A stretch of 64,000 nt of DNA, taken from a virus. Positions 1 through 64,000 of the stretch are shown one piece after another. Location: positions 47,956-111,955 of IMG/VR virus record IMGVR_UViG_3300045988_175607. One strand, 5' to 3'. Under the pieces are notes generated by a model. It was not told the origin of the DNA. It saw nothing but the letters and a program-made list of their open reading frames with translations, and ran no database searches. Within the stretch, counting starts at the first letter, position 1. Each line of letters begins with the position of its first letter. A program made the translations under genes and the position numbers.

Positions 1-2334
1 ACCATATAATTGAATATTAGGAGCTGTACTTACAGGGCCTAATAATAGACCTCCACTGCCATTATTATAAACACTAGGAAAAATTGATGTAAATCTTGTG
101 CCGCAAGTATTAACAATAGGATATTCCCACCATTCAATACTAAAGTCTTGAGCACATAAATCATAAGGTTCTAATGTTATATAATTTCTATTATCAATAT
201 AATAAACTGAATTATGATTTTTTGGAAATGCTGTCGCAACATTGGCCACATTAGGTTCAACAAATTTCTGTGTAACAATATCAAAAAGTCCAATTACGCC
301 ATCAGATATTCTTTGTACAGGGAAGAAATCAGCAACTTTGTTATCATCATTATAGAAAGTATAACGATAGATAATTTCTTTATGATAAATAATAGTGTTG
401 GCAGTTCTATAATAACCACCCGCATAAAATACACCAGTATCACTTCCTGCAGAAGCAAAAGTAAAAGAGGAGTTTACTAAAGAATCATCAACAGTATATT
501 TGCCATTTTTTAAATCTAATACATGATGATGCATACCATAATCTGCAGTTGCTGTATCTCTAGAAATATCATATCTGCCATCTCCAAATACATAATTACC
601 ATTACTTGCAATACCAAACCAAACAGTATAATTAGAACCGCTCAACTAAATACCGCTGCATTTCATTAAATCACTTGTTGCATCAGGAATTGCAATATCA
701 GCTTCAATTTTATAAGTTGAATACGCGCTCGAAAGGACTGCATTTTTTAATTTAAAAGCGCATTTTCCTTGTGTATCTATCGCCGGAATTTTTTTATATC
801 CTTCTGGTATATTTGCAGTTACTGCCTAAGTGGGCGCCATAATACTACAACCAACATTAGTTACTGCATGACTATGTAAACTCTCATCTTTAAATTCTTT
901 GCCTAATAAAACAAATTCATCATCAGCATCGCCACGAGGTAAAGAATCATATTCCTCGCCATTATTTAAATAACGAGTTGTTTTAGGTGTAAAATTAGAA
1001 GTCCAAACTGCAAAATCAGAAATGCGAAATTCATCCATATTACCAGTTATAGAAGGCGTAGAGCTAGTGCTACTTATGGTAAAATATGACGCAGCAATAA
1101 AATCACTAACTTCTTTAAGAGTTTTAACCAGTGTGCCGTTTTTAAAAACTAAAAGATTTGATTTATGCCTAACAATAGCGTGATGCACCCAAGTATTACG
1201 AATTACAGCACTTCCTACTGTTCCATTTAATACATCCCAAGAAGAGCCTTTGCGAGTTGCATAAAAGCATAAATTGGTACCAACTTGATAACACCCCATA
1301 AAACTAGTGCCTCCAGTTGGCCCCATTTTAAAAGAACAGCTTGTTGTACTATCTTGTCTATATTCCCACCAATCAATCGTCCAATCATCTGTTGCAAATT
1401 TAGGTAAAGTAGAAACATTATTTATTGTTATTGCATTATTTGTTGAAGTAAACGCTAATGTTTTATTGCCATTACTAAGTGGCGATGCAAATGTAGAAAT
1501 AAAAGGCGTTGTTATTGATAATGTTTGATTATATTTAGAAACATCAACTGGTGAAGTACCCGCAGTATTAGGTCTAATTAAAGCACGGCAGTGCCCTAAA
1601 AAAGTATCGTTTTGTTTCTTTTCATGATAATCAACATCAATATGTTTAGTTTTTGAAAATAAATCATTAATTACATATTTATTAGTTATTTCAGACCAAC
1701 CACTTGACGCTTTTTGATAAACTTTTTTGGCTTTTACCCATTCGCCCTAATGATTTTTTACAACTATAGAACCTTCCGCAAGAGTATAAGAATCTTCAAA
1801 GAAGGGAATATTTTCATCACACCATTCTCTTGTAGGCTCATTTCCAGCACCAAAAGATTCGGTTAAGTCGATTAACATTATATCATCTAAGTATATGATA
1901 CTTGATGTAGCTGCATTTATCGAAATGCGCAATTTTATTGTAGTGTTTGTAGATATAGTGGCTATACGTGAATGCCGATACCAAATTTTCTCTTTTAAAA
2001 TATTTTTATACCAAGCATTATTAATATTGTAATTAATATTTGTGTCACCGCTCAAATACCAACTTCCTGTAGAATAACTTAAACTTACACTTGACGCAAA
2101 ATTTGGACTATGACAAGCAATGTAAAAAACATGGTCATCAACAACTGGTGTAATAATATAATCATTTGATGGAGGAAAATCAAAAACATTATTGGTAGTT
2201 GCTTTTTTAGTTGCTAATGATACATTTCCGCCCAAACTTATATCTGTATTATAGATATAATTTGTTGAAAAAGTAAAGCTTTTATTTTCAAATGAAGAGT
2301 CTTGACAAAGATTAATCAATTTAATTGCTGCCAT
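1..2334 (-). CDS. Giant tail-fibre-like protein, 5' part (more than 778 codons, continues beyond the window start); N-terminal CBM4/9/22-like carbohydrate-binding module
   Basis: Track ORFs 1747..2334 and 826..1326 are in the same frame and separated only by TAG (1747, 826, about 640); hand translation stays open to position 1. N-terminus MAAIKLINLCQDSSFENKSF... resembles the CBM_4_9 start motif; the IDLTESFGAGNEPTREWCDENIPFFE motif is shared with three other genes. Start ATG 2334 overlaps the upstream TAA (TAATG). Confidence 0.55.
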
Positions 2335-2564
2335 TATTCAGTAGCTTCAGTAACAATAAAAATGTCACCTACTTCTCCTATATCTGTTGGAGGCTCTGCA
2401 ACATTACCAAAATAAACATTTCTAAATGTTATAGAGCCATCTACTTTAGCACCTTTAACATAAGCCACTTTCCCTATCCTTAAATCACTTGCTGTTGCAT
2501 TTGAATCACTATAATCAAATAAAACAGTACCATCCATTATCGCTTTTTTATAATTTTTAGCCAT
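2334..2564 (-). CDS. Hypothetical small structural protein (76 aa), TAG-free
   Basis: Complete ORF; SD AAAGGAG upstream of ATG 2564; TAA stop at 2334-2336. Confidence 0.6.
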   Translation of the reverse strand: MAKNYKKAIMDGTVLFDYSDSNATASDLRIGKVAYVKGAKVDGSITFRNVYFGNVAEPPTDIGEVGDIFIVTEATE

Positions 2565-2579
2565 AATTTCACTCCTTTA

Positions 2580-3002
2580 TCACTTTGTAGTAATAGTTAA
2601 TATTGTATAACCATCACTATCTGTTGTTTCAGTTACTCCATAAACTTTAGTACCTTTAATACCCAAGAGTGTAACAGTTGAGGGCATAGACGCCGGATCT
2701 AGTCCATCCACAAGAGAGTTTACAGTTATAGGAGAACCATCATAATATCCAGCAGGCATAGTAATATTAAAAACCGCATAATAATTGTTTCCATTTTTTA
2801 CTGCGGTTGGCAATAATACGGCCGTGATCTCACTTGCTTGAATATTATGTGCAGTGCCTATTACTTTACCATTTGGGCCATACGCACTATAACCTTCGGG
2901 CAACATATTTGAATTAGTTAAATTAACATCTTGAGTATTAGTAGGGCCTGCAAGTATATGCATTCCACTAATATTTTGATTACCTAAATAAACTTTACCC
3001 AT
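2580..3002 (-). CDS. Hypothetical structural protein (140 aa), TAG-free
   Basis: SD AGAAGGTGG then ATG at 3002; TGA stop at 2580-2582. Confidence 0.6.
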   Translation of the reverse strand: MGKVYLGNQNISGMHILAGPTNTQDVNLTNSNMLPEGYSAYGPNGKVIGTAHNIQASEITAVLLPTAVKNGNNYYAVFNITMPAGYYDGSPITVNSLVDGLDPASMPSTVTLLGIKGTKVYGVTETTDSDGYTILTITTK

Positions 3003-3005
3003 AGA

Positions 3006-3966
3006 TTATGACCACCTTCTGAATATAGCTTTGCCACCAGCATTATCGCGCATATAAGCTAAAGTTACAAAATCATAATCTGTCGTTGGAATATAGGATG
3101 AAGATGCAGCTGCGCCAAATTTAAATAAACTTTTTTGACGATTTTTGATAAGTACAGTATTCTCTAATTTACTATTATCCGCATCATATCTTGCTAATAC
3201 AATTTTTTGATCATATTCAATATTATCATTGTTAGCAGGAGCTAATTTAATATCATCTTCAGTCTAAAAAGTTGCATATCGTTCTAAATAAAATGAAGGG
3301 CTAAGTAATCCCAAATCTTTAAAAGTATTAGTGTTTCCTGTGGCAGGATCTACTGCTAATGCAAATTTATTGCCTATAGTGACTTTATTATAAAAAGTTG
3401 TTGGCTGCTTAGTAGATTGTTCGGCTTGCGCTACATAATTTATAAAAATATTGTCTGTACCAGTTACTTGCTCTTCATCAACCGCATTATCAGTTTTAAT
3501 TATTTGACGATATATTTTATTATCTGTTAATATATATTCATCATTAGTATGTAAAAATGAATCGTTAATAGAATGTTTCCAACTTTTTTCTGCATCATTA
3601 TCCAGCTATGTATAATTAGCCATATTCGCTTGAGTAGCACGATCTGCATAAGTTGCATAGAAAGCACCACTCGCTAATAAAGGCAAACGCATTATATTAT
3701 TATTATCATTAGAATTTAATATTTTAAAACTATCAGTGCTAGAAAGACTTTCATTCATAAAGTCTACAGTGTCTTTTAATAAAGCCTTTGCCGCATCTGA
3801 AACATTAGCTTTACTAGTATTTACGTCTAATGTAAAAAAACCAAGACCTTCATTAAAAATTAGAGTACCAGCCTATAATGCTGGCACAGAACCACTTGAT
3901 GTATTAGTACCATTAGTACCTCGATAAATTTTTAATGGAGTTTTTTCTGTTGCCATTTTTAAAAGA
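3006..3966 (-). CDS. Hypothetical tail/baseplate protein (about 319 codons, 3 in-frame TAG)
   Basis: SD GAAAGGAG + ATG at 3964-3966; hand translation runs through 3 TAG codons to TAA at about 3006-3008; no fragment appears in the ORF track because TAG recurs every <60 codons. Confidence 0.5.
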
Positions 3967-4082: not shown

Positions 4083-4889
4083 TTAAGTCCAAGCAACTGG
4101 TACAGCTGCCCAACCCGTTCCTGTCCAATAGCGCAAAAAGTTATTCTTCTTGCCGCCAGTGTCAATCCAAAGTGCACCAACCTAGAAATTACTGCCCACA
4201 GGCTAAGTCGCAGAAACAGTAATTAATTTACTAACAGACTCTTTTACTGTTGCTGTTGTAACAAGTTTAGATTTAGGTGCTGGCAAAAGTGGTGTAGGAG
4301 TATTTTGCGGATAAAACTCGAAGCCCAAATCCCCTTCAACATAATTTTTTAATAAATTATTAACAATATTAAAATCTAAATATTCTTTATTTACCACATG
4401 AGCTGCATTAGTAATAGGTGCGGAAATGCTAATGGTTGCGTCATCACGCATTTTACCGCCATCAAGTGACAAATAATTTTTCATGCCGCTAGCTTCAAGT
4501 AAATTACGCACTGTGGTATAGTATAAAACATCATTATTATCTAATACTAAAATTTTAGTATTTTTAAGACCACTACCAGTTAGAGGCCCAACTTTACCAG
4601 CCCGATTATTATATAAATGTTCATTGGTAATTATTTTTACTGCGCCAGTAATAGTTATATTTTCAGTAGTTAAAGTGCCTGAAAAAGAGGCTTTAGACCA
4701 CATGTTTTCTAATTCTTCAAGTTTCTCTTGGACGGTTTTATTTTTATTTATACCCTCACGAATGACAACGCCTTTGCCCTATTCGCTATTGTTAGGGTCA
4801 ACATAAAACACGCCACTCGCCATTGTTTCAGGATAAATAATAATTGCACCGTCAGAGGTCTTGAGTGTTTTTACATATTCATTTGCCAA
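4083..4889 (-). CDS. Hypothetical structural protein with Trp-rich C-terminus (about 268 codons, 2 in-frame TAG)
   Basis: Track ORF 4203..4703 extended through TAG at 4203 and 4779; TAA at 4083-4085; probable TTG start near 4889 (an AGGAGG-associated ATG is one base out of frame); C-terminus ...LGALWIDTGGKKNNFLRYWTGTGWAAVPVAWT. Confidence 0.45.
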
Positions 4890-5004: not shown

Positions 5005-5601
5005 TTATAAATCAATCCAACTTAAACTCTCAAGCGCAGCTATACGAGCATAGATTTCTTCTTCTTTATCAGCTAAATAATTACTAGCTTCTAAATCTTT
5101 AATATCTAACCCATATAATACTTTACCTTTTGTTGGCCGAGTGCTTAAATTGTAAGTAAAATATCTTGGATTTTTTTCATCTAAAACCTTATTAAGTTTA
5201 TAAAATCTAAATGAAAAAGTAACATCGCCGGCATACTTAGTTGCTTCGCCTCCAATAGCCCAAGGAATAAGCATTTTTGGCGAGTCAGGGTCATTATAAG
5301 TGGTTACGTCATAATATGGAACGGCATATACCCGCGATTCCCCACCAGCATTTATATATTGTATTACACAAGTTGTAGTAGCTAAATCGATATTATCAAA
5401 AAATCTATCTACAATAAAATATAAACATTCTGCCCTATGATCTTTCTCCACACTTAAAAAATCTGGCACTTCAACAATTCTTTTGTTTAAGTCGATTTTA
5501 TAAATGGGTTCACTACTAGGGAGTAAAACTGCCAAGGTGGGAGGATTTACATCATAAATCTATGATAAATATTTTTCATATTCCGCGGCAGTTGTTATCA
5601 T
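5005..5601 (-). CDS. Hypothetical structural protein (about 198 codons, 1 in-frame TAG)
   Basis: Track ORF 5005..5535 extended upstream through TAG at 5560 to ATG 5601, preceded by SD AAGAGGT; TAA at 5005. Confidence 0.5.
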
Positions 5602-5619: not shown

Positions 5620-7434
5620 TTAGATTTGTGCAACTTTGAAGAGTAAGCTATAAGTAGGTTCAGATTGGCTGCCATTAAGATTATTAATAATTTTAACATA
5701 ATAATAACCCGACACTTTAGCATTATAACGAATCGCGAGATCGGTAGTTTGAACAGCTTCAGGCAATAAAGCTTCATCATTCTCATGGGGATGTTGTTTG
5801 CCAGTTTCTGCATAATCATTTTTATAATCACATTTATACCACTGGTAAGTATATCCATCAGTTACAACACCTGAACTTAACGTTACTTCTAAGGTAGCTG
5901 AACCATTTTCCATTTCAATTTCGGCCATACCGCCCTCAGAAGCAGGCAAAGGCTTCACGATAACGGGTTTTGCAGCTGGCTTGGTAACACGGCAAACCTC
6001 AGACTGTGTAGTTAATTTACTATTATTTAAATGATTAGTAACAATTACACTATAGCTACCTTCTTCATTTGCAGTATATTCATTTTTAATAGCGTTTTCA
6101 ATAAGATTTTCTTTAGAATACCATTGATAACTAAGTTCACCACCGTCAGGACTTTCTGCAAGACAAATTAATGATATAGGAGTCATGTCTGCATCAAATA
6201 ATGAACTTGTGGGGAAGCTCTTTATTACTGGTTTGCTTGCGGCAGGAACTACGCATTTAGTGGTATCTATCGTATCAGAGCTAATCTGTACACGATTAGT
6301 AACAGTGGCAAAATAAGTACCAGTCTCAGAAATGGTACAAGCATAGAACCTTTCATAATAAGTATTTTCAGGAATCGGATCACCATCAGTAACTTCTGCG
6401 ATTTGATAACCTGAAATATTCTCATTATTTTCAGCTTTAATATAATAAGCTTTACCCTAAGCAAAAGTACCATCATTACTCAGTACATATTCATCAGGCA
6501 GAACCGTAAGCTTGCTATCAGCACTGGGTACAATATGACCATTTTGCATATGAGTCCAAGAGATGGAGATAACTCCCGCGTCTTGGCTTTCAGCTTGTAT
6601 CCTGAGTGTTTGAGATTGATGATCTCTTTCGCCTTCAAGATTGATTGTTTCAGGCAAATCTTCAAATAATACAGGTTTTTCCGCGGTTTGACCACCAACA
6701 GGATTAGTATCAACAAAGCGGCTAAGGATTAAATCATTACGATCAATAATCTCTATTGCGCTATCATCTTCTATATCTAAGTCAAGAGCAGGATTAATTA
6801 CTGCACTTGCAGTCAAAGTACTAAAACTATAAGTAATTTTAGGCTTTTCTTCATTGGTTTTACTAATAAAACGCACAGAAAATTTAATTGTGCCTGCGCG
6901 ATCAGTAATTTCAGAAGAAATAGGCCAACCAAAAATAATCTTACCAGGCTTGCTTATAATATCGCGCACCCAAGGAATAGAAACGTTCTTTTCAGTAATA
7001 CCTTTAGCATCAGGCGCAGTTTCCCACTATATATAAATTTCTTTAGTATTTAAGTCAGTAGCATCAAAATAGCGATCAATTTCAAAATAAAGTATTTCGG
7101 CAATTTCATCGCCTTTTACTGATATACCATTCTTTTTAAAACTGGGAGGTACAGTAATAGTTCTTGTATTTGCATCAATCAAAAATACTTCTTCGTCTAC
7201 TGGTAAAATAGTATATTTAAATTGTCTATTTTTTGAAGGGTCATAAGCTGGCGAATTATTAGAAGTATCATCATGGTCATATTTAGCTAATTTAGTAATA
7301 TAACCAAAATAATCTTCTAAAGTAGTGATTTCCGCACCATCTTGCATTTCATTATGTTTTTTCAAGATTTTATTGGCCTCTTCAAATAACTTACGATATT
7401 TAACAGTATTTTCACTATTTACATAAGTAATCAT
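5620..7434 (-). CDS. Structural protein with Ig-like (Big_2-type) repeats (about 604 codons, 3 in-frame TAG)
   Basis: Track ORFs 7027..7434, 6457..6969 and 5620..6186 share one frame and are joined only by TAG; SD + ATG at 7434 with TAA just upstream; TAA at 5620; repeated YQWY-containing segments separated by KPAAKPVI linkers. Confidence 0.5.
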
Positions 7435-7730: not shown

Positions 7731-10700
7731 TTATATTACTTTAAAGTTATATGTAACTCCAACACTTGCAGTGGTAAGACCAGTAAGATTCGGCAAATAA
7801 TCATCTGATTCTGGCGCACTATACTTATTAATATGCTCCTAATCAGAATACATATTTACTGTTGTAATTGTGCGGTTAGGAGGATTCTAGAAAAGCACTC
7901 TATAGTTAGTAGAGCCAGAGCGCATACTAGTAATATAACATCCTTTTTCAGAATCGCCAAAATTAAATGTTGATATCTTGGTTTGGAAAGCAAATGCCGA
8001 TTGACCTATAAATTCAAAATGTCCAGTAATAGTAAATGAATCATTATCAATGGGTGAACCACTAAGTGCGTAGTTATCAAAGCGACACACCTTATCTGGA
8101 TTAATATCAATACGACTTAATCTTAATATTGGTATATCAACGGCATTATTTTTACGTATTGAAGCCATACAATACGCACCAAAGCGCTCTATAGTGCCAG
8201 GAACTTCAATATACTATAACTAGCCCATACCCTCAAGACAACGAGGCATAAAATCAATGACGTTTGTTCCAGCAGGGTCTTTATACCAGAAAATATGTGT
8301 GATATTGTTATTGTTTCTAAAACCATTAACAAGACTTGAATTAGTATCACCATAAATACCAATAATGGGCTAATTGTTATGACGAGTTGGCAAAGTTATT
8401 TTACCAGATAATGAATATTCAGATTTAATGCTGATGTAATAACCATTTTGTTCACGATATGTTCCAGAAGTGAAATCAAAAAATTTCTCATCAAAAGGCG
8501 CATCATAGACATTTGCTATTTCATAAACCGCATAGAATTTATAATCTTTAATAGATCTCATAGCCTCTAAATCAACCTTGCGGCCGCCCTTACTGGTTGA
8601 ATAGCCGACGTGTTTATAAGTGCTTTCAAGGGGTAGAGTTGATTCGTCTTTATGAGGAATAATTGTGGGAGGATAAAGCTTTTCATTATAAGTGACTTCT
8701 ATCTCATCGATTAATGAATCATCATCATTATAAAAAGACATTTTATACTTATGCTTAATATAAATAGCATAGAAAGTATAATCTATCACACCCTATGTGC
8801 AAGACCATTCTTCCCATTGTTCATTAGTGATAATATTATTACCTGCTGCATCAGTTGCCCAACCGAGGAAATCATAATTGGGCTTTGGCTTTGGTGTATA
8901 AGTGGTATAAGGATTAGAGAACCGCACAATTGTACCACTTTCAAAATCATCAGCCGCAATTTTCTATATGCCAATAATATTTTTCTTACCATCTTCATCA
9001 ATCTATACAAATATACCAGAATAACCTTGCTTTACATTTGTAAAGAAGAAATTAAGATTGGGATAATAATCATTGCTCTATAAAGTATTGCGAATATATC
9101 CTTCATCAATTACGTCATTATTCTCAATATAAATATAACCAGTAATTTCAGGCATTGAAGTCGCAGTACCTTTGAATATATTGCTATACTTTTCGATGTA
9201 ATCTTTTAACATATCTACATTGGCAATAGTCTCATATTTATTGGTAACTTTCTTAAATAATTTTCCATCAATAAGTAAGTTATTCCATTCAGAAGCATCC
9301 CAAGTCCAAGTTTCTAATCCATAATGGCCATTATCTTTGTAGTATTCCTCAGAAACATTATAAGTATAACCCTCAGTTAATTTTTCATAAGGCATCCAAT
9401 TAACTCCACGCAATGAAATTTGCAACTAACCTTGATTAGGAAGAAGCTTGATACGAGTTAAAGACTTTAATAATTTATAACTATCATAACCAAAATAATC
9501 ACCATTAATGCTTAATACATTTAAACCAGTTTCAGTCGCAGTATCTAAATTATTAGTTAAATCTTCAATATATAATCCCGTTGGAGGAGTCCAAGTAGAG
9601 AAATTCTCTTCTGTTGGAGGCTCATAAGAAACAATCAAATCTTTTAACTAAGAAGCTTCAACCAAATTAAGATTCGTTAAAGTCTTAGGAATATGTAAAG
9701 TATTAAGAGCAACACCTTCTGCAAATACAATATTCTAAATATTAGAGCGTACTGCACGGAAAGATTGTAATTTCTCACTGCTGGAAAAATCTAATGTTTG
9801 TACATTTTCAATAAATACACCAGTAAGATTTACCTCTTTTAACATTGGTTTACCTTTTGCACTGCTCTTAGAAGCATCAAAACTGGGTGGATTCGTTTTT
9901 AAGAAATAGCCCGGATACTCTGAACCAAGTAAAAGTCTCTATAAACGAGAAGCTCCTAACGCTCTAAACTCTCGCCAATATAAAGTGCTCATATCACCAA
10001 CATCTTGTAAGAAGCTTGCGCCATAAATATAGAATAACTGTTCACCATAATTGGCACCACTACGACGTCCTATAGGCATGTTACCCGGTAATTGCATATA
10101 AACAGCTTTGTCACCTTTATATAATTGCGGTTCCATTGAGCTATTATCGCCACCAATAGTAACATATTGCCGTTGATAAGGAATAATCTTTACTGCTAAA
10201 TCAGCATCCAAATAATTAGTTTTTATTGGGTTGCCATCGGCATCTTTTTTCTCTGTGCCATTTTCTATAACATAATATGGCGAATATTCAAAACCGGCTG
10301 GTAATGTCGTAGTATTATTATCGATCCATTTATCTGAAGTTTGATTTATATCGTTAGCAATAATACGACCTTGAATTGAGGCACCCGCACGTGCATATTC
10401 GCCCCAGCCCTAAAATGAATCATAAAAATTAATACGATTCATTAAGAATTGCTGACGAGATAAACTACGATCACCTTGTAATGCATAGAAATAAGTACCA
10501 TCACCATCAATCGCAATATCACCATCTTGATTCTAATAACCATCTCCATCGGGATTGGTAATAGAAATATATTTCCAATATTCATCCAAATTCAATGCCA
10601 TTAAAGGACGAATACCTCTCATAGCAATAGAATTACATTCAACAGGGTCGGCTAAGTACCATTTTTCAATATGATCAACATCTCGCTATAAAGCAGAACG

Positions 10701-51671: not shown

Positions 51672-52258
51672 TGTCTATCTAACGCACTCTTTTCTCGCAA
51701 TATAGACCAATTAGATTCATAAGCACCTCGCGCATTTTTCTTGCGGCGGCCATAAAGCCTTTGCATATGAATTGATTGACGCTATGTTTCTGATAATAGA
51801 GCTAACATTTTTGATAAATGATTAGCTTGGGAAGTAAATTTAAAATCTGATCCTGAATACTTCATCCTCGTATTTTCAATGGACGCAACTTGTCTATTTA
51901 CCCAAGCGCACATCATTAAAATAGCTATAATATTAATTTCTTCTTCTGTTAAAGATTCTAAAAAATAAGATTTATCAATAATTACATCAGGAATATCATC
52001 TGGCCCAGAAGGTATCTTTCCCCATAAAACACCTACTACAAAATCATCAGAAGTTACCATATCTTCTGGAATTGTTTCAGTTTTTATGACATAGGAAGAA
52101 ATATTATGCCTAGGAAATTCAAACCCTGGCAATGATTCAATTAAAAGGTTCTGCAAATCTTTTAATGTATCTTCTGGAGTCAATTCAATATACATATCAT
52201 CAGTAATTTTACCAAGAAAGCGATTATATACTTTGGAAAATTCAGTTATTCCATCCAC
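51668..52258 (-). CDS. Putative head-tail connector/adaptor protein (about 196 codons, 1 in-frame TAG)
   Basis: Track ORF 51782..52258 extended through TAG 51782 to TGA 51668; the position downstream of the capsid genes suggests a connector. Confidence 0.4.
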
Positions 52259-54090: not shown

Positions 54091-54855
54091 TTACGCTATG
54101 CGCATTAATTTAACGCCTTTTTGACCATCAGGCATAGTATACAGACGCACTACCTGCCACTTCATAGAGCCATCACCAGACTTGCTGAGAATACCGTCAG
54201 CCGCACGGGGAGAAAGCTCATCACCAAGAGCAAGAGTAGATTCCGCAATCATGTTAGTGGTAAAGATATCACCCACATTAGTCTTAAATACGCGGGGAAC
54301 CATCTTAGTGCCTTCGGGCATCTTGCGCTCATAATGCTTACCAAGAATGTGGAAGGGATCTTCATTATAATGAATTTCATAATAATCAGGGCCGGCAGTT
54401 ACATCGTCATAATTGTAAGTCTTGCCACCAAGTTCAATGCTAGAATCGCCATTATTATCTACGCCATTGTAATAACGAGTCTGTTTATCCTCTTCGGGCT
54501 TTTCCCAATCATAAGGACTATAAACACGAGCTTCATAATTATCTTTCAGCATAGCGAACTCAGCATCAACCTGATGTTCACGATAAAGCTTAATCTCATT
54601 ATAAACAAGCATCCATTCGCCCTTACCAGCGAAATTTACCTCACCACCATTGGCGGCAGCATAGTCATATTTTACAAACTGACCATTTTCTAAAATCTTA
54701 ATATCTTTATTAGCAGGCAGCTGACCATAAATCTGTCCAGTCCTCTGAGCTGAAAGATGGTTAGGTTCTACTTGGCCATAACCATAATCAACATAGCCGC
54801 CATTAGCGGAATCTGCCTGGCTAGTAATGTGTTTCTTTAAAAACTCACCCAGCAT
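54091..54855 (-). CDS. Capsid-associated protein (254 aa; decoration or auxiliary capsid protein), TAG-free
   Basis: Complete ORF between the scaffold-like gene and the MCP; TAA 54091. Confidence 0.4.
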   Translation of the reverse strand: MLGEFLKKHITSQADSANGGYVDYGYGQVEPNHLSAQRTGQIYGQLPANKDIKILENGQFVKYDYAAANGGEVNFAGKGEWMLVYNEIKLYREHQVDAEFAMLKDNYEARVYSPYDWEKPEEDKQTRYYNGVDNNGDSSIELGGKTYNYDDVTAGPDYYEIHYNEDPFHILGKHYERKMPEGTKMVPRVFKTNVGDIFTTNMIAESTLALGDELSPRAADGILSKSGDGSMKWQVVRLYTMPDGQKGVKLMRIA

Positions 54856-54876: not shown

Positions 54877-56415
54877 TTATTCTTCTCTAGATTTTGCAAC
54901 AGCAAATGCAGCCTTTAACCAAGCAGGAGTATTATCAACTTCATCATGGTCTAAATTATAAGTAATAGGCCCATTCTCATCTGTTTTCTTTTCCTCATCA
55001 AGGTCAAAACTTACCTTATTGCGGAAACATATTATAGAAAGTTTTGCTTCAATATCATCCAAAGAATAAGAATCAATATGATCAACAACATCTTTCTTAT
55101 CATCATCGGACAGCATATAAAAGCTATTTATCATAGCCTGCTTATCCTTGCGCTCGGCCGCAACCTTAAACTGAGTCAAAGACTCAACTTGCGCAGTTAA
55201 CTCATTATTAGTTTCCTGCAAGGCATTATACTGAGCTTGTAAAGTATTTAACTGTTCAACAACAGTATTATACTCTTCTATAGAATAAGAAGTTTTCTTC
55301 TTCTTCTTATCTTCCTCATCATCAGACTGAGATTCATTATCAGAATTATCTTCTTCTTCTGACTTTTTCTCATCCTCAGTGGGCTTCTCTTCATCCTCAG
55401 AAGGCTCTTTAGTATTCTTTTTCTTATATTCTTCCATATAAGCTGCAACATCGGCTTCTGCAAACTGATTAATAGGAGTATAATTTTTAGTTACTTCAAT
55501 TAAAGTGTCAGAAGCTTGGAAGCCCTCTGTTTCAGAAAGAGAGAAATTTAAACGATAGTATTTTGTATCAGCGCTTCTCAGAACTGCAAATTTTTGACCA
55601 TTTTCTTCGCAAATGCTATCAATGCTATACAAAGAAGACCATTCATCAGCAGGATCTTTATAAGTCTTATGAATATAATCCCATACGGCTGACCAAAGAC
55701 TATCGCCAATATCAACGGCATAAGTATTCAATACTTTCGCTCCTCCTTCATTCAAAATATTCTTTAACTCATTCATCATTGAGAAGAGCTACTTTTTAAA
55801 CCCATCCTCGAATGAGAATTGAATAGGAGCTGTAATACTCGCTCCCTCAAAGCAAGGTTCTACATCTTCGCCTAAAATACAAAGATTCTAAATTATTGCT
55901 TCATTGATAATAAAAAACTGCGGTTTTCCTTTATCATCTTTTGTCCAGTGTCCTTTTAAAATTGTATTGTCAAGTTCCATTGAGTGGTTATTACCTATAT
56001 CAATAATACGTTGACATTCAGGATACTAGCCAGTCCATAAATATCCTTCTGTTACTAAATATTCACGTTCTATTACATCATCATCAAGGAATTTCTAAAA
56101 CCAAACTTTAGCACCCAAATCAATAAAGCCATAAGGCCTTGTATTTTCTTTAAAGGTTAATTGGCCATTAGAAATTTCTATAATTTTATTATGTTCTTCA
56201 AAATCGCCATTGGCCTCATTATAATAACCAACAATGGGACTACCTGGCAATGAATTAGCGAGCTTTCGCGCAACATCCTTAGTAATTATACTCTTATTGC
56301 GATTAGGCTCATCTTGAACATAACAAACTTTTATTTGACATTTAGAAATTAAAGGATTGAGCGGAGTCACGTTAATGAATTCGATGGACTGTTCAATGCC
56401 TATACTCTTATGCAT
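54877..56415 (-). CDS. Head morphogenesis protein: N-terminal domain fused to an acidic coiled-coil scaffold-like C-terminal domain (about 512 codons; 4 in-frame TAG in the N-terminal half, none in the C-terminal 300 aa)
   Basis: TAAGGAGGAATATTA + ATG 56415 right after the portal TAA; track ORFs 56095..56415 and 54877..55779 share a frame and the 55780-56094 gap contains only TAG; the C-terminal part has an SEDEEKPTEDEKKSEEEDN acidic tract plus heptad coiled-coil; an internal in-frame ATG at 55779 could give a nested scaffold product. Confidence 0.45.
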
Positions 56416-56427: not shown

Positions 56428-58035
56428 TTAACTCATAGATTCTTTATTCTAGATAGTTTTTTCGCTCTTTTGGTCATCAGATTTTTCTGGACGACCAATT
56501 TCTTTACTATCCTAATTTGTTTGATTTTTTATCTAATTACTTTGCTCTTTGTTACCCAAAATTAAATCACTGCTCATAGTAGAACTCATAAGCGGAGGAA
56601 TCATAATTTCGTATAACTTTAATATATCATTCTCAAAGTGGGCAGAATTCAAAATGAAACTCTAAGAATGTCCAAGAGCAATCTAAGGTAACATCTTTGA
56701 GAAACCAATCTAAGATTGTTCTTTATATAATTTTGCCAATTCTTTATAATTATATTGAGTTGTTTCTAACATACAAAAATTAAAAATACACTTACTATTT
56801 TTATATTTTTGGCTTATAATACGATCAAAAAACTATTCAAATTGAAGCAATAACTTACGTATCGAAGATTCATCATTAAGAATTGATTTTTCCAAAGACA
56901 AATTACCATCAGTATTAAATAAATTACGCGAAATACCTAATGCATTATAAACAGTGCGTTCAACTTTTTCTAAATCATCTTTGGTGGTTGAAGTGTTTTT
57001 ATCAGACATATCAATAGAATCAACATCTGTAAATGTCGTTAAAACATCAACTCCAACAGCACGACGCAACATTTCTACTGCATTGTTGTGTATATCTCTA
57101 GCTTCTTCAACATCAAATATTAAATCACCATTTTTGTCTCGCGGCAATTTTTGGACAACAATTTTTAATAATTGCTGCATTTGTTTTTTGCGGTCCAGGT
57201 CTTGGGCGGCATCCAAGTCAAGAATCGCAGGAATTGCATTTACAAACATTGGTAAATCATGATGCAATAAATTAAATTTTACAGTATTTTCTGGTTCAAG
57301 CAAATACCAGCTTCCCTAATTATCTCCAGCAAAGTCAGGTTGTAATTTACCCTATTTATAAAGTAAATATCCTTTTGAAAATTCATCAGGAAATAACTTT
57401 AAAATACGCATACGATAATTAGTGTCTCTAAACGTATCAAAGTATCTCATGTCAAATTCTACTGCAGGAGTTGAACCAACATTATAGCGGGAGCGGCAAT
57501 AGTCAGTTGGCAGCTATTGTAATACTAAACTTTTATTCATATTAACAATATATCCATAATAAGCGCCATTTTTGACTACTTCTAAAGCTATATCGCCGCA
57601 CACTTTTTTAATATAAGATTTATCAAGAAAATCTAATACACTAGCAAAATTTTTTAGAACTTTCTCGACAATAGCATCTTCATAAACTTTTGGATCTACA
57701 TACCAATCATAACGATAAAGATAGGCGAAGTAATTGCAGACCTTTTGATAAATACCATTTATCTCATAAAAAAGATTAGAAATTCTTCGCTGTTCTTTAA
57801 CATCATGTTCCATTAAAGCTTTAATAACCATGCCTTTATTAATTGCTGGACCATGATTACCTTTATCTTTTGGATTGGGACAATAGGAACCTAATTGAAG
57901 AACAGCATCTTCAACAGATTTTACTCCAATGCGAACTTTCTTATATTCATTAGGTGCGTCTGTGCGATAATATGCATATCCATCAACCATAGCAAAACCT
58001 TTATCATGAATTTGCTATGTGCGGGATTTATTCAA
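56428..58035 (-). CDS. Portal protein (about 535 codons, about 11 in-frame TAG)
   Basis: SD AAAGGAGGTG with a 9-nt spacer to TTG 58035; track ORFs 57514..57990 and 56833..57303 share a frame and are joined by TAG; TAA at 56428-56430; located immediately after the large terminase. Confidence 0.55.
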
Positions 58036-58056
58036 ATTACGCACCTCCTTTGCTGT

Positions 58057-58413
58057 TAATATCCAGCTCGTTCCATAATATAATCATAAGAAATAAGATT
58101 CTCTTCATTATAAGGTATTTCTATTAAATTAAAATCATGTAAAGCACAAAATCGACGTTTTTGATTATCGTTATATTGCTGTTGGTAAAAACCTCTTTTG
58201 CCACCAAATTTACTACTTGGTTGGTAATGCTATTTACCCTAATACTCAATAATGAAATCAATACGTCCATCATCATCAAAAATAACAAAATCAAAACGTA
58301 AAGGACGCCCATTAGGACTTTTTAAATCGGGAAAAATATACTCCATTTTAAAGTTTAAGCCTGCTTCGCGCAGGATTTCTTCGATCTTGATTTCCGCTCG
58401 TGAAGCTCGCACT
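58057..58413 (-). CDS. Small DUF559/Vsr-like (restriction-endonuclease-fold) protein inserted between terL and portal; 2 in-frame TAG
   Basis: Motif RFDFVIFDDDGRIDFIIEY-TAG-GK-TAG-HY corresponds to the family signature IE.DG.QH if TAG = Gln; apparent GTG start at about 58413 after GAGG; a 31-codon MKNFAVIANRAIRSFNTT... ORF with a strong SD (58414..58507) precedes it in another frame, so an indel or programmed shift may be present. Confidence 0.4.
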
Positions 58414-58521: not shown

Positions 58522-60252
58522 TTAATTAAAAAAGGCCCAATCTTTTGCATTAAACCTTTTACGTTTTTTCTTGTCATCTTCCTCATGTTTAATGTAATAT
58601 AATCCATATTCAAACGCAGAAAATTTGTCTTTTCGTATCCCACGATTTACCTATTTTAAAATAATATTAATACCTTCATTTTCTTCACGAAGATTCAACA
58701 TTTCTTCTTTTAATATGGAAGTGTAATTAAATGGTTTTAAATAATCTGTCCTTTGTTCGGGCGTCATATTTTGACCAACTTTTGTATTAAGTAATTTTGC
58801 TTTTGCTGTCTATACATCAATCAAAAATTTTACTTTTCCAGAAGATAACTGAGTTTGCGCATTTGCATGAGCATCAGTATTTAATGATGCATTAGCTTTA
58901 ACTAAATACATTGCATCTTGTTCTGTAAAATTAGTTTTATATTTTTTATAATAGTTATCTTCATCGTTATAAACACCAAAATCATAATAAGTTTCATTTG
59001 TCTCAGGATTAACCTACGTTTTTATCATGTAGTCTACAAGTCCAATACCTAGACCATTCGCATCTATGATAAGACGTCGCGCCTTAAACTTATAATATAA
59101 CTATTTTAATTTTATTGCCTAATCTTCAAAATGCTCATCCGTTAACACAAATATGTTAACTAATTTTTTGATTGATGTACCCTGCTATTGTGGAATTACA
59201 TTAAAAACGCAAACAACAGTATCACATTGTTTGCGGCCCACATCCACAGAAAGCACATAATAAGATTGTTTTGATGCACGTCCAGATGGCTCATATTCCG
59301 GTTGATTAAGAATACGGTTTCGCTCAAAAACTTCAGGATTGAAAAATGCATCCTCTACTGTTCCAGACCATTTCGACTCATATTCTCGCTAAAACGCACT
59401 TTCATTAAAAGTACCATCCATACGTAAATCTTGAACAAAGCTTTTGTCCAAAAGCTTCATAAGCACGGGGATGCGATAAGTGCCTCCAAGTATAATTGAA
59501 CGCTCTGGCTTCACGATCTACCAAACTAACAACTAGATGAGTTTGTCATAGGCATACGTGTTCTTATATCCAGCTGTAGTCACGTAGATTTGGGACTTGT
59601 TGAGCGTTTCCTCAGGCTATGTTGTTCCATCCATACACATACGTGAAATGTTCATTGTGGGAATGATAACCTGAGACAATATATCGCCATCGACTCCAAC
59701 ACATTCTTCTATGACTCCCCCATGACGACGCTTACCACGAGAGGTTTCACGCGCTGCAATATTATCAAAATAAGAGCCATTTTTAAATACTATTGTAGTT
59801 TGGTCTTTACTAAATCTAGTTTGACCAGGCCTATAATCAATTTCCTTATCCATAGCTGGGATAAGGTTACATATTTCTTGCACCTTTTCTTTTATGATTC
59901 CGGCTGCCTATTCTTTACCACCCGAAGTAACGAAAAGTTTGCACTTAGGATACAAAATGCAACGAATCATTAAAATCATAATCGCAAGAAATGATTTACT
60001 GTACGCGCGCGGATAAACTGCGTATACGTATTTATGCCGCATTGCCGCACGCAAAAAAACTCGTTGATAAAAATAAAGATGAAAATTTTGGGGATTTCCT
60101 GCTTCCAAAAGAAAGTCAATAAACATATCTGGGTATTCGCGCCAGAATGCCACATATTCACGCACCACTGGAAGAATTGCGGTCACACGCTCTTCGGAAA
60201 GCCCTAATTTATTGTATCGAGACTATAAATTTAAAAGTTCTTGTAATGCCAT
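58522..60252 (-). CDS. terL: Terminase large subunit (about 576 codons, about 10 in-frame TAG)
   Basis: ATG 60252 overlaps the upstream TAA (TAATG); Walker-A-like YPRAYSKSFLAIMIL near the N-terminus; track ORFs 59908..60186 and 59617..59883 are joined by TAG; hand translation continues through 8 further TAG codons to TAA 58522. Confidence 0.7.
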
Positions 60253-60683
60253 TAATTATTTTTGCCCAAGGCTAATTCTTCAGTCAATCGCGCATCTGCT
60301 TCTTGCTCAGACTCAAGAAATTCCTCTTGCTCCATAAAGTCTGCATCAGTAATTTCTGGAACTACATCTTCCATTATTTCATCTTCGATATCTTCATCTT
60401 CTTCTTTATTTTCTTCGTAATTCATTGTGCGTATTGAAGATTCAATTAAGTTGCCCAAGTTCATTTCTTCTGTAACTAAAGTACGCACATAATTTTTTGT
60501 ATCCTATAAAGTTTCATCAACTTTATCTTGTGGTGTGGATATATAATAACGTGGTATAAAACCTTGCTATTCACATAAAGTAACAAGTTCAGAAACTGAA
60601 TTAACATATTCACCAGATTCTGCCTTGTTCTGAGCAGCGGTAAATTTTCCTGATTTCATTAAGTTATCATACACACGGCTCAT
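60252..60683 (-). CDS. Putative small terminase subunit / DNA-packaging protein with acidic C-terminus (about 143 codons, 2 in-frame TAG)
   Basis: GAAGG + ATG 60683; TAA 60252 overlapping the terL start; the small-terminase call rests on position and size only. Confidence 0.35.
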
Positions 60684-60847
60684 TTTTTGAAAACCTTCTA
60701 CCATTATATATGTTACGAAGTATCGCTACTACTTCTCTTTACATTTCTGTAAAGTTCAGACTATATCTTTATCTTTTACCATAATTTTAAAAAGATACTC
60801 TCCATTTCGGAATACTTATTCCTACGTCTTTCGACTAGTCGTTGAAC

Positions 60848-61687
60848 CTTTTATTTAAATTTCCAATAAAATCCTCCGGCTAAGCCTTGTTTAGAAATTG
60901 CCCTACTTATATTAGCAATCTTCAATTCTTTCTAAGCTTGAGCAATAGAAGGAAATTCTTTAATTATGTTTTTTTCTTTATCTAACTGATACACAGGTTT
61001 ACTACTTTTGTTAGTTTTTATTATATATGTTGCATGTAAATTATTTTCTTGATAAGTAATTTTTTCTAAATTTTCTTTAGCATTATTTAATTTATTGCCA
61101 TCTTTATGATTTATAACATATCCTAATAAATCAAAATCATTATAAAAATTACTATAAACTAATTGATGTATACGATAAGTTTTACCCTAATTATTATGCC
61201 ATAAGCTTATACACTCATATCCACCACTATTATCCTAATAACTTTTTAATAATCTCTAAGTGCGAATATTCATTATTCGTCCTATAGATGAAATTACATA
61301 ATTTGGATAATCTTTTACAGGTCGCCATTCTTCATCAGATAAATTCCCAATAAATTTATTAATGGTCTAGTTTCCGTTTTTTCGCAATCCTGTATTAATA
61401 GCATGTATACTATTTTCTTTTTCAGTAACCCACTCTAAATTATTTATGTTAAAATTATGGGTATCTCCATCTTTATGATTCACTATATTTTTCCCAATGG
61501 GCTATACTAAAAAAGTTTCTGCAACCATTCGATGTATTTTTACCTATTTCTTTTTTCCATTTATAGTTAAATTATAAGTAGGATATGTTACTGACATTTT
61601 TGGTGTTAAAAACTTGTTAGATAAATTACTAAAACATCTACCATCATCATAAATGATATAAGATGTATCTTTATATTGTTGAAACAT
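60848..61687 (-). CDS. HNH homing endonuclease with NUMOD4-like N-terminus and two HNH_3-like motifs (about 279 codons, about 8 in-frame TAG)
   Basis: SD AAAGGAAAT + ATG 61687; motifs VNHKDGDTHNFNINNLEWVT and INHKDGNKLNN (H-x-D-G-x-x-x-N-N), plus YPNYVISSIGRIMN (NUMOD4-like); TAA about 60848; no track ORF because TAG recurs every <60 codons. Confidence 0.6.
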
Positions 61688-61834
61688 ATTTATTTCCTTT
61701 CTGGAATATTAAATAACTTGGCTGCTGATTGTCTATATATCTTTATTTTTTTCAAACTTTCTAATTTATCTCTATAAAGAGATTCTTATGTAGTAAATAA
61801 AGCTTTAAGAGTTTCCAGCAATTAAAAGAGTTTT

Positions 61835-62598
61835 TAGGCGACATAAAAAAGTTTATCGCCAATATCAATCAACTAATTGGCTTTTAAAGAAGTTTTACAT
61901 ATTAATTTAAGAGTGTCAATATGACCGGCACTTTGAATGTCATAAGACTGAAGAAATTCATTATATAATTGTTCAAGCTTAATCCATTCTTCAGGCTTAT
62001 AAGTTTTTCCCCATTTAAGACGTAACATTAATTTTTCTTCATCAGTTAAATCAAATGTTTCTTCAGGGACTTCAATATTATTTTGCTAATCAAAGTAATC
62101 CTGTGATGAGCCAAACTCATCACCATTTGAGGTGGGTATCTGGGGTTGTTCATAATGTTCATCAAATGTAAAAGTAGCCTTATTAATAGCTTCAGCAATT
62201 TGTTGAGCATCATATCCAGAACGCTTCATCGTTTGTTCTATTTTACTTTGCGCAAGTTCCTGTAAAAAAGCCGTATCTTTCCATCGATAATCTCTAAATT
62301 GTTTGAGTTTCATTTTAGAAAGGTAGCGCCCTATAATGGTCATACCAGTTAATTTTTCTGGATTGCCAGCATATTTTGCCATTAACTTGTTCCATTCATC
62401 AGGAACATAAGGTACGTCAGCTTCTTCTAAAATCCAAAGATAAGTATTTGGATCCCAGTTATCAACATGCATGGTCATACATTTTTTGCAAATATCGAAT
62501 TTACCATTGTTAGGATATTTTTCTAAATTATTAGAAGAATAAAATTGTTCCCCATCCATGGTACGATTACATTTTTTGCAATAATATAATTCGCCCAT
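61835..62598 (-). CDS. Zinc-ribbon protein (about 254 codons, 2 in-frame TAG)
   Basis: SD AAAGGAGAAAT + ATG 62598; N-terminal CKKC...CKKC pairs; track ORF extended through TAG 62086 and 61874 to TAA 61835. Confidence 0.5.
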
Positions 62599-62601
62599 AA
62601 A

Positions 62602-63678
62602 TTATTTCTCCTTTTGTTTTTTCTTTTTACTTTTAGCATTGCGGCATTTTTTACATATACTGTAATAGCCATCTTTGCTAGTTTTATTTTTAGAAAAATA
62701 TTTATTATGAGCTAATTTAATTTGTCCACAGCAACTGCATCTTTTATATTTTCCTTTTTCAATATTAAGATAATACCAATCCAAATATTGATCTTCGGCG
62801 GCACTTGCTATTAATTTAGGAATTTTATTACGCCAAAGACTCGATAAATATTCAAGGCTATGAGTAATACCAAATTCTGTCTGTAATAAATTTTGTATTT
62901 CAACATTTTGCCGACCATCTATTTTATATAACACTAATTTTTGATAAATGGGATAGGGTGCAAGCGCAATGGTGGAAATTTTATCAAAATCTTCCATAAG
63001 ATAATATAAATCTCCAATAAATTCACTATAACCATCTTGTTTTAATTTGGAATATAAACATAAAATTGTCGAACAAATGTTTGGATCCAAAAGAGAGAGA
63101 CCTAAAGGAATTGGATATCCTTCTTCATCAAAATTGCAAGTCTTATCATCATAAGTAAGTTTATAGATGCCGCGGGAATGCGCAGTCGAGCTTGCTTGAA
63201 TAGGCTATCGGAAAGAATCTTTAACAAGATATTGATCTTTTCGCAATTCAATAATTGTTTTTCGTGTAATAAAAGCTTCGCGGCCTTGCGCGGTTTTTGC
63301 TTTTTCTTCCCAAAATTCAATGGAATTTCTTATTTGTTGTAATTCAGGTATTTCTTCTAAATCTTTTTTTGTTATTTTTACTTTTGGTTTGAATATTTGA
63401 TTTTTATTTTCATGGATTAAATTATAGATTCCATCTTCGCCACTTTCTAGTTGTGATACAAGGCCTTCAAAAGAAGTTTCACGTTTATTAACTGTGGCTA
63501 AGCGGTTTTCAGTTAATATTTTGCGCTCACGGCGCTCTTGACGTTCCATGCACATAACTAGATAATCAGTTAAAATTTCTATGTATTTTTGTGGAGGGTT
63601 AGGCTATTCAGCCAAAATTTGTTCCACTAATTGTACTCTTTCTTTTGGAGTTTCTAAAGAATAATCTAATTTTATCAA
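62602..63678 (-). CDS. Zinc-finger protein (about 358 codons, at least 2 in-frame TAG), possible regulator/replication-associated
   Basis: Track ORFs 63205..63555 and 62602..63090 share a frame and are joined by TAG 63205; C-terminal CSCCGQ...CKKCRNAK; probable TTG start near 63678 after SD AAAGGAGG; TAA 62602. Confidence 0.45.
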
Positions 63679-63699
63679 AGGCTTTTTAGAACCTCCTTT

Positions 63700-63887
63700 A
63701 TTTTTGAAGCGTAGCTAGCTCCAATTCTTATTTTATTATAGCATGAAAAAAGCGCAATGTCAAGTTTTTTGAGAAAAAATTGATAAAATTTTAAAAATAA
63801 TATATAATTTATATATAAAAAATAAGAAAGGAAATGCGCTTTTTAAAAAGCGCAGCTTTTTAAAAAATGAGAAAACCTCGTGGAATT
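63700..63887. promoter_or_regulatory. Divergent intergenic control region with paired GC-clamped TTTTTAAAAA palindromes
   Basis: AT-rich; GCGCTTTTTAAAAAGCGC (63837-63853) and GCTTTTTAAAAAAT (63855-63868) lie 20-50 bp upstream of the + strand ATG at 63888; the minus-strand SD AAAGGAGG sits at its other edge. Confidence 0.4.
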
Positions 63888-64000
63888 TTGGGCAGTTATG
63901 CTGCAAATATGAAAAGAAAAGCTACTATAACAGCGACTACTAGAGTGTATGAATTTATATTTAATGAGAAGCCAAAGAGGGGTCGGCCTAAGAAGAAGAA
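63888..64000 (+). CDS. Early-region gene, 5' part (basic N-terminus MRKPRGILGSYAANMKRKATITATTRVYEF..., continues beyond the window)
   Basis: Only substantial + strand coding start in the window; no in-frame stop to the window end; a partial GAGAAAA purine run precedes the ATG. Confidence 0.4.
   Translation, partial: MGSYAANMKRKATITATTRVYEFIFNEKPKRGRPKKK

Follow-up and report, generated by a model that had tools for sequence, protein, structure and literature searches.

TAG as a glutamine-equivalent sense codon in the virion gene block of a tailed phage from the wider phAss-1 / Enterococcus EF1-like group

Introduction

The use of TAG as a glutamine (Gln) codon, termed genetic code 15, was reported for gut Caudoviricetes, and in the published model TAG-bearing virion and lysis genes are completed once a suppressor tRNA has built up (bioRxiv 10.1101/2021.08.26.457843). 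Proteomic proof for the translation of TAG into Gln has been obtained in crAss-like phages (PMC9523058), and NCBI keeps a taxon named 'Caudoviricetes code 15 clade'. The phage phAss-1 (GenBank OQ749652), representing the proposed genus Phassvirus, also reads TAG as Gln and encodes a tRNA-Sup(CTA); the wider phAss-1 group includes the standard-code Enterococcus phage EF1, and a host among the Clostridia is suspected for phAss-1 itself (PMC10607447). Moreover, theta ribozymes have been reported beside the suppressor tRNAs of recoded gut phages, often together with an RNA ligase, and the DRB0094 ligase family is enriched near them (PMC10879173). Here, we analyse a 64,000-nucleotide (nt) stretch of viral DNA (IMG/VR record IMGVR_UViG_3300045988_175607, positions 47,956 to 111,955), hereafter called the window, in which TAG occurs in frame in most of the genes.

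We hold it to be very probable that the window represents the virion and packaging block of a tailed phage of ~176 kb, which uses code 15 and reads UAG as Gln by means of a phage-encoded tRNA with the anticodon CUA, tRNA(CUA). The phage probably originates from the human gut. Over the 13 kb compared, the ENA contig ERZ27250529:k119_226633 (176,020 bp) matches the window with 100% identity; the window corresponds to contig positions 93,620-157,619. Judged from sequence comparisons, the closest described phage is phAss-1. An earlier note, which had been made from the letters of the window alone, had already proposed that TAG is recoded here, and its claims are considered together with the respective results.

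TAG is a sense codon in the window

The window is AT-rich (GC content 32.8%), and all convincing genes are located on its minus strand. Under the standard code, the longest open reading frame (ORF) comprises 700 amino acids (aa), and the fragments of 100 aa or more number 73 and span 41 kb; when TAG is read as sense, the ORFs extend up to 3,213 codons. Freeing TGA or TAA instead of TAG gave no comparable gain in ORF length in the window. Gene calling with TAA and TGA as the sole stops resulted in 36 minus-strand genes, g1 to g36, which comprise 20,304 codons and cover ~95% of the window, the longest product having 3,195 aa. In frame, these genes contain 225 TAG, 0 TAA and 0 TGA, while their two off-frames, which served as a control, contain 2,116 TAA and 1,702 TGA, corresponding to ~9% of the codons. 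An ORF of 3,195 codons without any TAA or TGA cannot arise by chance.

The earlier note had stated that ORF fragments nearly always end at TAG, that the next fragment continues in the same frame, and that translation across the junctions gives continuous protein. Our counts agree with this. Among standard-code ORFs of at least 60 aa, 101 of the 136 on the minus strand end with TAG, 30 with TAA and 5 with TGA, compared to 7 TAG, 59 TAA and 17 TGA among 83 on the non-coding plus strand, and the reading frame is always kept across TAG. Furthermore, family profiles match the merged proteins across their TAG positions: the PHROG profile of the portal protein extends over all 10 of them, and the matches of the large terminase (TerL) and the PF10145 match of the tape-measure protein cross TAG positions as well. 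Public gene calls on identical DNA show the same long products.

The proposed gene ends likewise stood up, since the 35 complete genes terminate with 32 TAA and 3 TGA, GGAGG-type Shine-Dalgarno sites precede most starts, and overlaps by coordinates of 1 nt (g4/g5, g23/g24, g35/g36) or 4 nt (g12/g13) fit the coupled TAATG and ATGA arrangements described before. Regarding the hairpin terminators that had been mentioned at gene ends, one strong hairpin was found, after g17. The suggested spacing of one TAG every 50-70 codons applies to the tape-measure gene (1/60), while the other giant genes show one per 85-100 codons and the overall value is 1/90. Taken together, TAG is a sense codon and TAA and TGA are the only stops in the window. 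Compared to gene prediction with table 11, the code-15 gene set is far more coherent; annotation with the standard code breaks the phage into ~100 fragments, which code 15 restores to 36 genes.

Under the standard code the genes look shattered, as they would in a decaying prophage or after sequencing or assembly errors. We regard the chance of such an origin as practically negligible, because the frames are broken by TAG only (225 versus 0 TAA and 0 TGA) and never shifted. In addition, many independent assemblies hold the same sequence (100% over 13 kb) or variants with 94-99.7% identity over shorter stretches, and the TAG positions are either common to relatives or replaced there by Gln codons.

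TAG is equivalent to glutamine

To assign an amino acid to TAG, 80 related loci were taken from IMG/VR (labelled L plus a number where they need to be told apart) and the orthologues of g1-g17 were aligned. These relatives include 37 standard-code members, with zero in-frame TAG, and 42 recoded members. At the 49 TAG sites of the window that are covered by at least 5 of the 37 standard-code relatives, Gln makes up 53.7% of the aligned residues, compared to 52.3% at the window's own CAA and CAG sites, and at 28 of these 49 sites it holds the majority. The log-likelihood of the residue profile is -99.5 for Gln and -157 for the runner-up, Lys. The most frequent counterpart codon of TAG is CAA, which is two substitutions away, and hence selection for the amino acid rather than mutational proximity explains the correspondence.

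Individual genes show the same. In g5, the gene for TerL, Gln is near-invariant at 6 of the 12 TAG sites across 36-38 standard-code relatives. Among the standard-code relatives, the stop codon of the portal gene is TAG in 28 of 34 cases. The recoded members, of which the window is one, show TAA there, and a window TAG near the portal end aligns with Gln in the conserved tail KTIQNKESMS. The earlier note had pointed to a conserved signature with TAG at the Gln position. This part is right: the nuclease g6 has the motif IEYxGKxH, in which each x is a TAG, and 36 standard-code relatives have invariant Gln at these two places. The name DUF559 (PF04480) given to the protein was not confirmed: Pfam returned only DUF2726 with 21.4 bits, below the cut-off of 24.7, while PHROG homing-endonuclease families do match. 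As an aside, g6 is kept at its site between the terminase and portal genes in ~77 relatives. Altogether, TAG accounts for 27% of all Gln-type codons in the window (pooled share 0.272), and the alignments with standard-code relatives show TAG to be equivalent to Gln, as the earlier note had read it (code 15).

One could still ask whether TAG encodes another residue (pyrrolysine, Lys, Trp, Tyr, Leu or Ser) or is ambiguous. For 21 of the 49 sites the majority residue in the relatives is not Gln, and the program ARAGORN labels the tRNA described below 'Pyl', a name that it gives to any CUA anticodon. Nevertheless, we consider a residue other than Gln very improbable, because variable sites are equally common at CAA and CAG codons, the TAG profile equals that of true Gln codons (53.7% versus 52.3% Gln), and Gln is ahead by 57 log-likelihood units. 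Concerning pyrrolysine in particular, no pyl genes occur among the Pfam-annotated loci. In the tRNA(CUA), the anticodon stem comprises 5 bp and the D-loop is normal and contains GG, features which we take to be unlike those of pyrrolysine tRNA.

On the portal tree of the relatives, at least 4 switches of the code are found. The 37 standard-code and 42 recoded relatives form a natural comparison set, which could serve for studying the onset of recoding.

A suppressor tRNA in near-identical genomes

No tRNA was found anywhere in the window, as the earlier note had stated with regard to a suppressor tRNA. Its inference that the decoder is encoded elsewhere agrees with the finding of a tRNA(CUA) ~100 kb away in a genome that is 98% identical to the window over 10.7 kb. 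A walk along the related locus L060 (IMGVR_UViG_3300045988_177309; 87-94% identical at the nucleotide level) passed ~60 kb of replication and metabolism genes and no tRNA. The idea of a family without suppressor tRNA was dropped once a tRNA cluster had been reached via the RNA-ligase and DUF2828 proteins. This cluster, beside the DUF2828 gene, consists of tRNA-Ile, tRNA-Gln(UUG), tRNA-Thr, tRNA-Leu(UAA) and tRNA-Pro, and the tRNA(CUA) lies beyond it, ~3 kb further in L270 and L285 and ~10 kb further in L280.

The tRNA(CUA) is located at L285:4546-4620 on the same 238 kb scaffold as L086, a locus that has the exact g34 protein and 98.1% identity to the window over 10.7 kb. A second scaffold, of 179 kb and 99.7% identical to the window in its capsid region, carries the same tRNA(CUA); for these 98-99.7% identical genomes, identity was measured over the regions compared. 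Searched alone against the Rfam tRNA model it reached 38.9 bits, while two wider searches missed it due to their speed filters. It aligns along positions 1-71 of the general tRNA model and folds as a cloverleaf. Upstream there is a promoter with 12 of 12 consensus matches (TTGACA, 17-nt spacer, TG, TATAAT), downstream a terminator, and with these the tRNA(CUA) forms a unit of its own. CCA is not encoded in this tRNA; the tRNA(CUA) of a more distant recoded relative is a different one and has CCA encoded. From these genomes we infer that the decoder of the window's own genome is likewise a phage-encoded tRNA(CUA).

The host itself might use TAG as Gln, in which case the phage would merely mirror its host and no switch of the code would be involved. 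We judge this very unlikely, since the phage lineage has its own tRNA(CUA) behind a strong promoter, TAG is strongly uneven among the genes (see below), and the standard code is found in close relatives, the portal tree showing no fewer than 4 switches.

Several further genes and RNAs were noticed around the tRNAs. The region L270:8771-17634 encodes an RNase T-like exonuclease, a PF09414 RNA ligase, an AAA_33 kinase-like protein and a metallophosphatase, which possibly form an RNA-repair set. One source gives a homologue of the ligase the name 'tRNA-binding EMAP/Myf-like'. The same region also encodes a Band_7 protein and a protein of 814 aa that contains major-vault-protein domains. In L283, a more distant recoded relative (191 kb), a full-length ROOL RNA (327 bits) lies among the tRNAs; ROOL and YrlA-like matches are found at L283:2271-2854 and L283:1632-1748, the Y-RNA-like (YrlA) one being weak and sub-threshold.

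An HDV-like element 3' of the tRNAs

In the near-identical genomes, a nested P1/P2/P3 pseudoknot resembling the hepatitis delta virus (HDV) ribozyme directly follows the 3' ends of the CCA-less tRNA(CUA), tRNA-Thr and tRNA-Pro. Such motifs were located at L285:4621-4680, L285:547-606 and L285:1492-1560, and also in L270, L280 and L283. The pseudoknot comprises 15 pairs, for which 100% of the alignment cells are paired and 9 of 15 show compensatory changes, while slid controls reached 32-62%. Its first position is a G.U pair, and a CTAA junction is conserved. No Rfam family matches these HDV-like elements. Judged from fold and position, an adjacent HDV-like (theta-type) ribozyme probably releases the 3' end of the tRNA(CUA), whose CCA would then be completed. 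The PF09414 RNA ligase near the tRNAs is taken to be a member of the DRB0094 family.

Organization of the virion gene block

The block is ordered from terminase and portal via capsid, tail tube and tape measure to giant tail proteins. It begins with a promoter, ahead of which a hairpin is found at 63854-63835, and its packaging and head part is composed as follows.

63735..63763, minus strand: sigma-70-type promoter at the head of the gene block, perfect 12/12 (TTGACA, 17-nt spacer, TG, TATAAT)
62602..63555, minus strand: g1, 317 aa, Cys-rich C-terminus, 1 TAG, stop TAA; orthologues in 78 related loci
61855..62598, minus strand: g2, first exon of a gene for 397 aa immediately upstream of TerL, 2 TAG
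60702..61854, minus strand: group I intron, 1,153 nt, splits g2/g4 and carries the HNH gene g3
60851..61687, minus strand: g3, intron-encoded HNH homing endonuclease, 278 aa, 7 TAG; PHROG HNH families, E 3e-64
60252..60701, minus strand: g4, exon 2 of the g2/g4 gene, 2 TAG
58522..60252, minus strand: g5, large terminase, 576 aa, 12 TAG; PHROG matches to both halves
58056..58346, minus strand: g6, free-standing homing-endonuclease-like nuclease, 96 aa, 2 TAG; PHROG 9084
56428..57990, minus strand: g7, portal protein, 520 aa, 10 TAG, stop TAA; PHROG 2739 over residues 61-518
54877..56415, minus strand: g8, 512 aa, acidic middle region, 4 TAG
54091..54855, minus strand: g9, 254 aa, TAG-free, GC 0.42, CAG > CAA
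52964..54073, minus strand: g10, major capsid protein, 369 aa, TAG-free, GC 0.42; PF27364 on record
52286..52882, minus strand: g11, 198 aa, TAG-free
51668..52195, minus strand: g12, 175 aa, 1 TAG, stop TGA, 4-nt overlap with the g13 start
51369..51671, minus strand: g13, 100 aa, 2 TAG, both invariant Gln in relatives
50348..51376, minus strand: g14, 342 aa, 8 TAG
49716..50324, minus strand: g15, 202 aa, 1 TAG
48988..49713, minus strand: g16, 241 aa, 4 TAG, all Gln in at least 26 relatives

The following features form the tail part.

47966..48964, minus strand: g17, tail tube (major tail) protein, 332 aa, TAG-free, GC 0.43; PHROG 2729
47797-47770: terminator, strong two-way hairpin just after g17
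46580..47731, minus strand: g18, 383 aa, 8 TAG
46573-46545, minus strand: promoter-like site before g19 and the tape-measure gene, 11/12 matches, TG present
45979..46512, minus strand: g19, 177 aa, TAG-free
36280..45867, minus strand: g20, tape-measure protein, 3,195 aa, 53 TAG (1/60 codons); PF10145 PhageMin_Tail, 102 bits
32071..36156, minus strand: g21, tail protein, 1,361 aa, 14 TAG, stop TGA
31707..32081, minus strand: g22, 124 aa, 3 TAG
28383..31682, minus strand: g23, 1,099 aa, 11 TAG
23548..28383, minus strand: g24, 1,611 aa, 19 TAG
23158..23529, minus strand: g25, 123 aa, 2 TAG
18244..23157, minus strand: g26, 1,637 aa, 19 TAG
17409..17828, minus strand: g27, coiled-coil protein, 139 aa, TAG-free, GC 0.41
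15382..17382, minus strand: g28, Ala/Thr/Gly-rich protein, 666 aa, TAG-free, GC 0.41
7731..15278, minus strand: g29, 2,515 aa, 28 TAG; 2,503-aa product in public assemblies
5620..7434, minus strand: g30, 604 aa, 2 TAG
5005..5601, minus strand: g31, 198 aa, 1 TAG
4083..4823, minus strand: g32, 246 aa, 3 TAG
3006..3956, minus strand: g33, 316 aa, 3 TAG
2580..3002, minus strand: g34, 140 aa, TAG-free; protein present on ENA contig k119_226633, exact copy also in L086
2334..2564, minus strand: g35, 76 aa, TAG-free
1..2334, minus strand: g36, tail-fibre protein with Laminin_G_3, truncated at the window start, 3 TAG within the window

The assignments of g10 and g17 are based on distant homologues annotated as major capsid protein and on homologues annotated as tail tube protein, respectively. 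Sequence searches of PDB with both proteins gave nothing useful, and the single-sequence structure predictions were too poor for use, with predicted local distance difference test (pLDDT) values of 44 for g10 and 32 for g17. The tape-measure protein g20 is homologous to the product of a phAss-1 ORF of 3,155 codons, and searches with the terminase found thousands of full-length 576-aa homologues. The two halves of g5 match PHROG 15503 and 24618 separately, both of 'unknown function'; it may be that these families go back to pieces of terminases from recoded phages that were annotated with the standard code.

Excision of the intron at 60702-61854 joins g2 and g4 to a single ORF, which is collinear with the uninterrupted gene of L060, and in phAss-1 one ORF of 404 codons matches both halves. 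The intron is not present in two close relatives, L060 and L002. The Rfam model Intron_gpI matches at 60737-60956 with 41.4 bits (E 7.9e-9), under the gathering score of 50, and there is a T before the 5' splice site and a G at the 3' end of the intron, as is usual for the type. The TAG density of the intron-encoded g3 is among the highest in the window. The terminase gene of L060 also carries a group I intron (L060:10927-11149; Rfam, 92.7 bits), while that of the window is uninterrupted.

At the distal end of the block, g36 is complete in the ENA contig (918 aa, 5 TAG). Related-locus searches of IMG/VR with g36 and g33-g35 found no relatives, and by this measure the distal tail genes g33-g36 appear specific to this lineage, which suggests that g36 and its neighbours are swapped receptor-binding parts. 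In addition, g24, g26 and g36 share a repeated module (PSFENKSF...NVSL.TKK...FG.G.EPTREWC..NIPFFE-like), which is followed by Laminin_G_3 in g36.

Genes that avoid TAG

The earlier note had TAG as a sense codon throughout the late genes. The sense reading is borne out, but TAG is found in 27 of the 36 genes, and the nine TAG-free ones (g9, g10, g11, g17, g19, g27, g28, g34 and g35) include those for the capsid and tail tube. GC content is raised to 0.41-0.43 in g9, g10, g17, g27 and g28, and CAG exceeds CAA in g9, g10, g11, g17 and g28, which is the reverse of the rest of the window. Seven TAG-free genes together have 67 Gln codons, for which the chance of zero TAG is ~6e-10 at a share of 0.272; for g28 alone, with 18 Gln codons and none of them TAG, the probability is 3e-3.

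This avoidance holds family-wide for the capsid and tail-tube genes. The orthologues of g9, g10, g11 and g17 in the 42 recoded relatives show 0.2-0.8 TAG per 1,000 codons (g9 0.6; g10 0.8, n=32; g17 0.2), compared to 8-26 for other genes, and the phAss-1 orthologues of g8, g10, g11 and g17 are also TAG-free. Outside the virion block, the replication, nucleotide metabolism and other non-virion genes of close relatives contain 3.06 TAG per 1,000 codons versus 11.1 in the window, and their genes for DnaE, helicase, primase, gyrase, ligase, ThyX and RNA ligase are TAG-free or nearly so. In the searched text of bioRxiv 10.1101/2021.08.26.457843 the absence of TAG from capsid and tail-tube genes is not mentioned, and the word 'capsid' occurs 0 times. 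In the family studied here, the capsid and tail-tube genes clearly escape recoding.

Such a distribution raises the question of whether TAG acts as a leaky stop that throttles output, with truncated and full-length products and with the number of TAG setting the yield. The family-wide TAG-free capsid and tail-tube genes on the one hand and the TAG-rich genes for portal, terminase, tape measure and fibres on the other would fit, as would the lack of a release-factor gene in the genome parts read and the consensus host-type promoter before the virion block, which would leave translation in control. However, a 3,195-aa protein with 53 TAG would require very efficient read-through everywhere, 27% of the Gln-type codons are TAG, and TAG occupies invariant Gln positions of essential enzymes. 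We therefore find a leaky stop unlikely, and this reading is in any case a refinement of the main explanation and not an alternative to reassignment. A related suggestion, to which we would give slightly more room while still doubting it, is that the TAG number of each late gene is tuned to the amount of protein needed, so that suppression rather than transcription sets timing and proportions. The capsid, the tail-tube and a few more high-copy genes are TAG-free with their own codon usage, and TAG is plentiful in the genes for low-copy virion parts and homing endonucleases. An equal pattern of avoidance would result if highly expressed genes had simply undergone codon optimisation of the ordinary kind.

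A possible course of infection

Returning to reassignment by a phage tRNA(CUA), the following course of events can be proposed. Early in infection, the host would read UAG as stop, and the TAG-poor replication genes would be made; these genes and the suppressor tRNA could be expressed under the standard code of the host. The consensus promoter of the tRNA(CUA) suggests early expression. The 27 TAG-bearing virion genes would yield full-length products only after tRNA(CUA) has accumulated. Translation would be the gate, because the virion block, too, begins behind a consensus host-type promoter. Capsid and tail tube, needed at the highest copy number, would be kept TAG-free, likely because suppression has to compete with release factor 1 of the host and works less efficiently than ordinary decoding. 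In this scheme, the parts that we infer are the timing of the switch, the charging of the tRNA with Gln, the activity of the ribozyme and the argument on efficiency.

It must be mentioned that several observations weigh against the overall explanation. The tRNA(CUA) was read on near-identical genomes and not on the window's own contig, and its sequence gives no isotype, the nearest tRNAs being ~65% identical and of mixed isotypes; hence, the assignment to Gln comes from the alignments. Neither a release-factor nor a glutaminyl-tRNA synthetase gene was seen in the genome parts read. Furthermore, TAG extends beyond the virion genes: that for RuvC has 5 TAG in 165 codons, those for dUTPase and several homing endonucleases carry it as well, and the gene adjoining the tRNA(CUA) holds 3 TAG, so that there is no clean split between early and late genes. 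The restriction to late genes implied in the earlier note is accordingly a relative one, i.e. a tendency and not a rule. Finally, the metagenomic bins containing the phage are named conflictingly (Clostridium sp., Mollicutes, Gastranaerophilaceae, Lachnospiraceae).

Host and comparison with known systems

The host probably belongs to the low-GC Bacillota, because strong Shine-Dalgarno sites and a low GC content are found, and relatives infect Enterococcus, Bacillus and Lactococcus. Whole contigs of the family also occur inside 'bacterial' metagenome-assembled genomes, namely L288 (JALFQD010000409.1, 174,861 bp) and L289-L292, probably as a result of mis-binning.

In comparison with phAss-1, the virion block is syntenic, with protein identities in the range of 29-51% (TerL 43%, portal 40%, capsid 51%), the tape-measure protein has a similar size of ~3,150 aa, and TAG is present in the TerL and tape-measure genes and absent from the capsid orthologue. 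The differences include the genome size (136 kb versus ~176 kb here) and the tRNA set, since phAss-1 has 36 tRNAs with three suppressors, whereas 6 tRNAs with one suppressor were seen in the relatives of the window. The suppressor tRNAs are unrelated (~65% identical). A megablast search with 24 kb against deposited phages gave no match, phAss-1 included. Membership in Phassvirus was considered and rejected, because its members share 80-86% nucleotide identity, while here no nucleotide similarity and protein identities of 29-51% were found; without nucleotide-level similarity to phAss-1, the phage should represent a different genus at least. The syntenic TerL-portal-capsid-tail block and the tape-measure protein of ~3,100-3,200 aa place it, by sequence comparison, in the wider phAss-1 / Enterococcus EF1-like group.

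The HDV-like elements resemble the published theta ribozymes in following CCA-less tRNAs, in the nested pseudoknot with a conserved junction C and in the RNA ligase nearby. They differ in that ~90% of the published examples come from Bacteroidota phages (PMC10879173), and the elements described here match no Rfam family and lie outside the window.

With the code-15 gut Caudoviricetes (bioRxiv 10.1101/2021.08.26.457843), the phage shares TAG as Gln, TAA and TGA as stops, a phage tRNA(CUA) and low GC, the enrichment of in-frame TAG in structural and its scarcity in replication genes, and the occurrence of recoded and standard-code members in one clade. Code-15 recoding is already well described, and mixtures of standard-code and recoded relatives are known for other clades. 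Hence, the window is a further member in a new lineage, which leaves the current picture unchanged and adds a well-resolved Bacillota-type example to the recoded gut phages. Its main contributions are that TAG is excluded family-wide from the capsid and tail-tube genes, that relatives of both codes are at hand as a natural set, and that near-identical genomes carry the suppressor tRNA together with its putative ribozyme.

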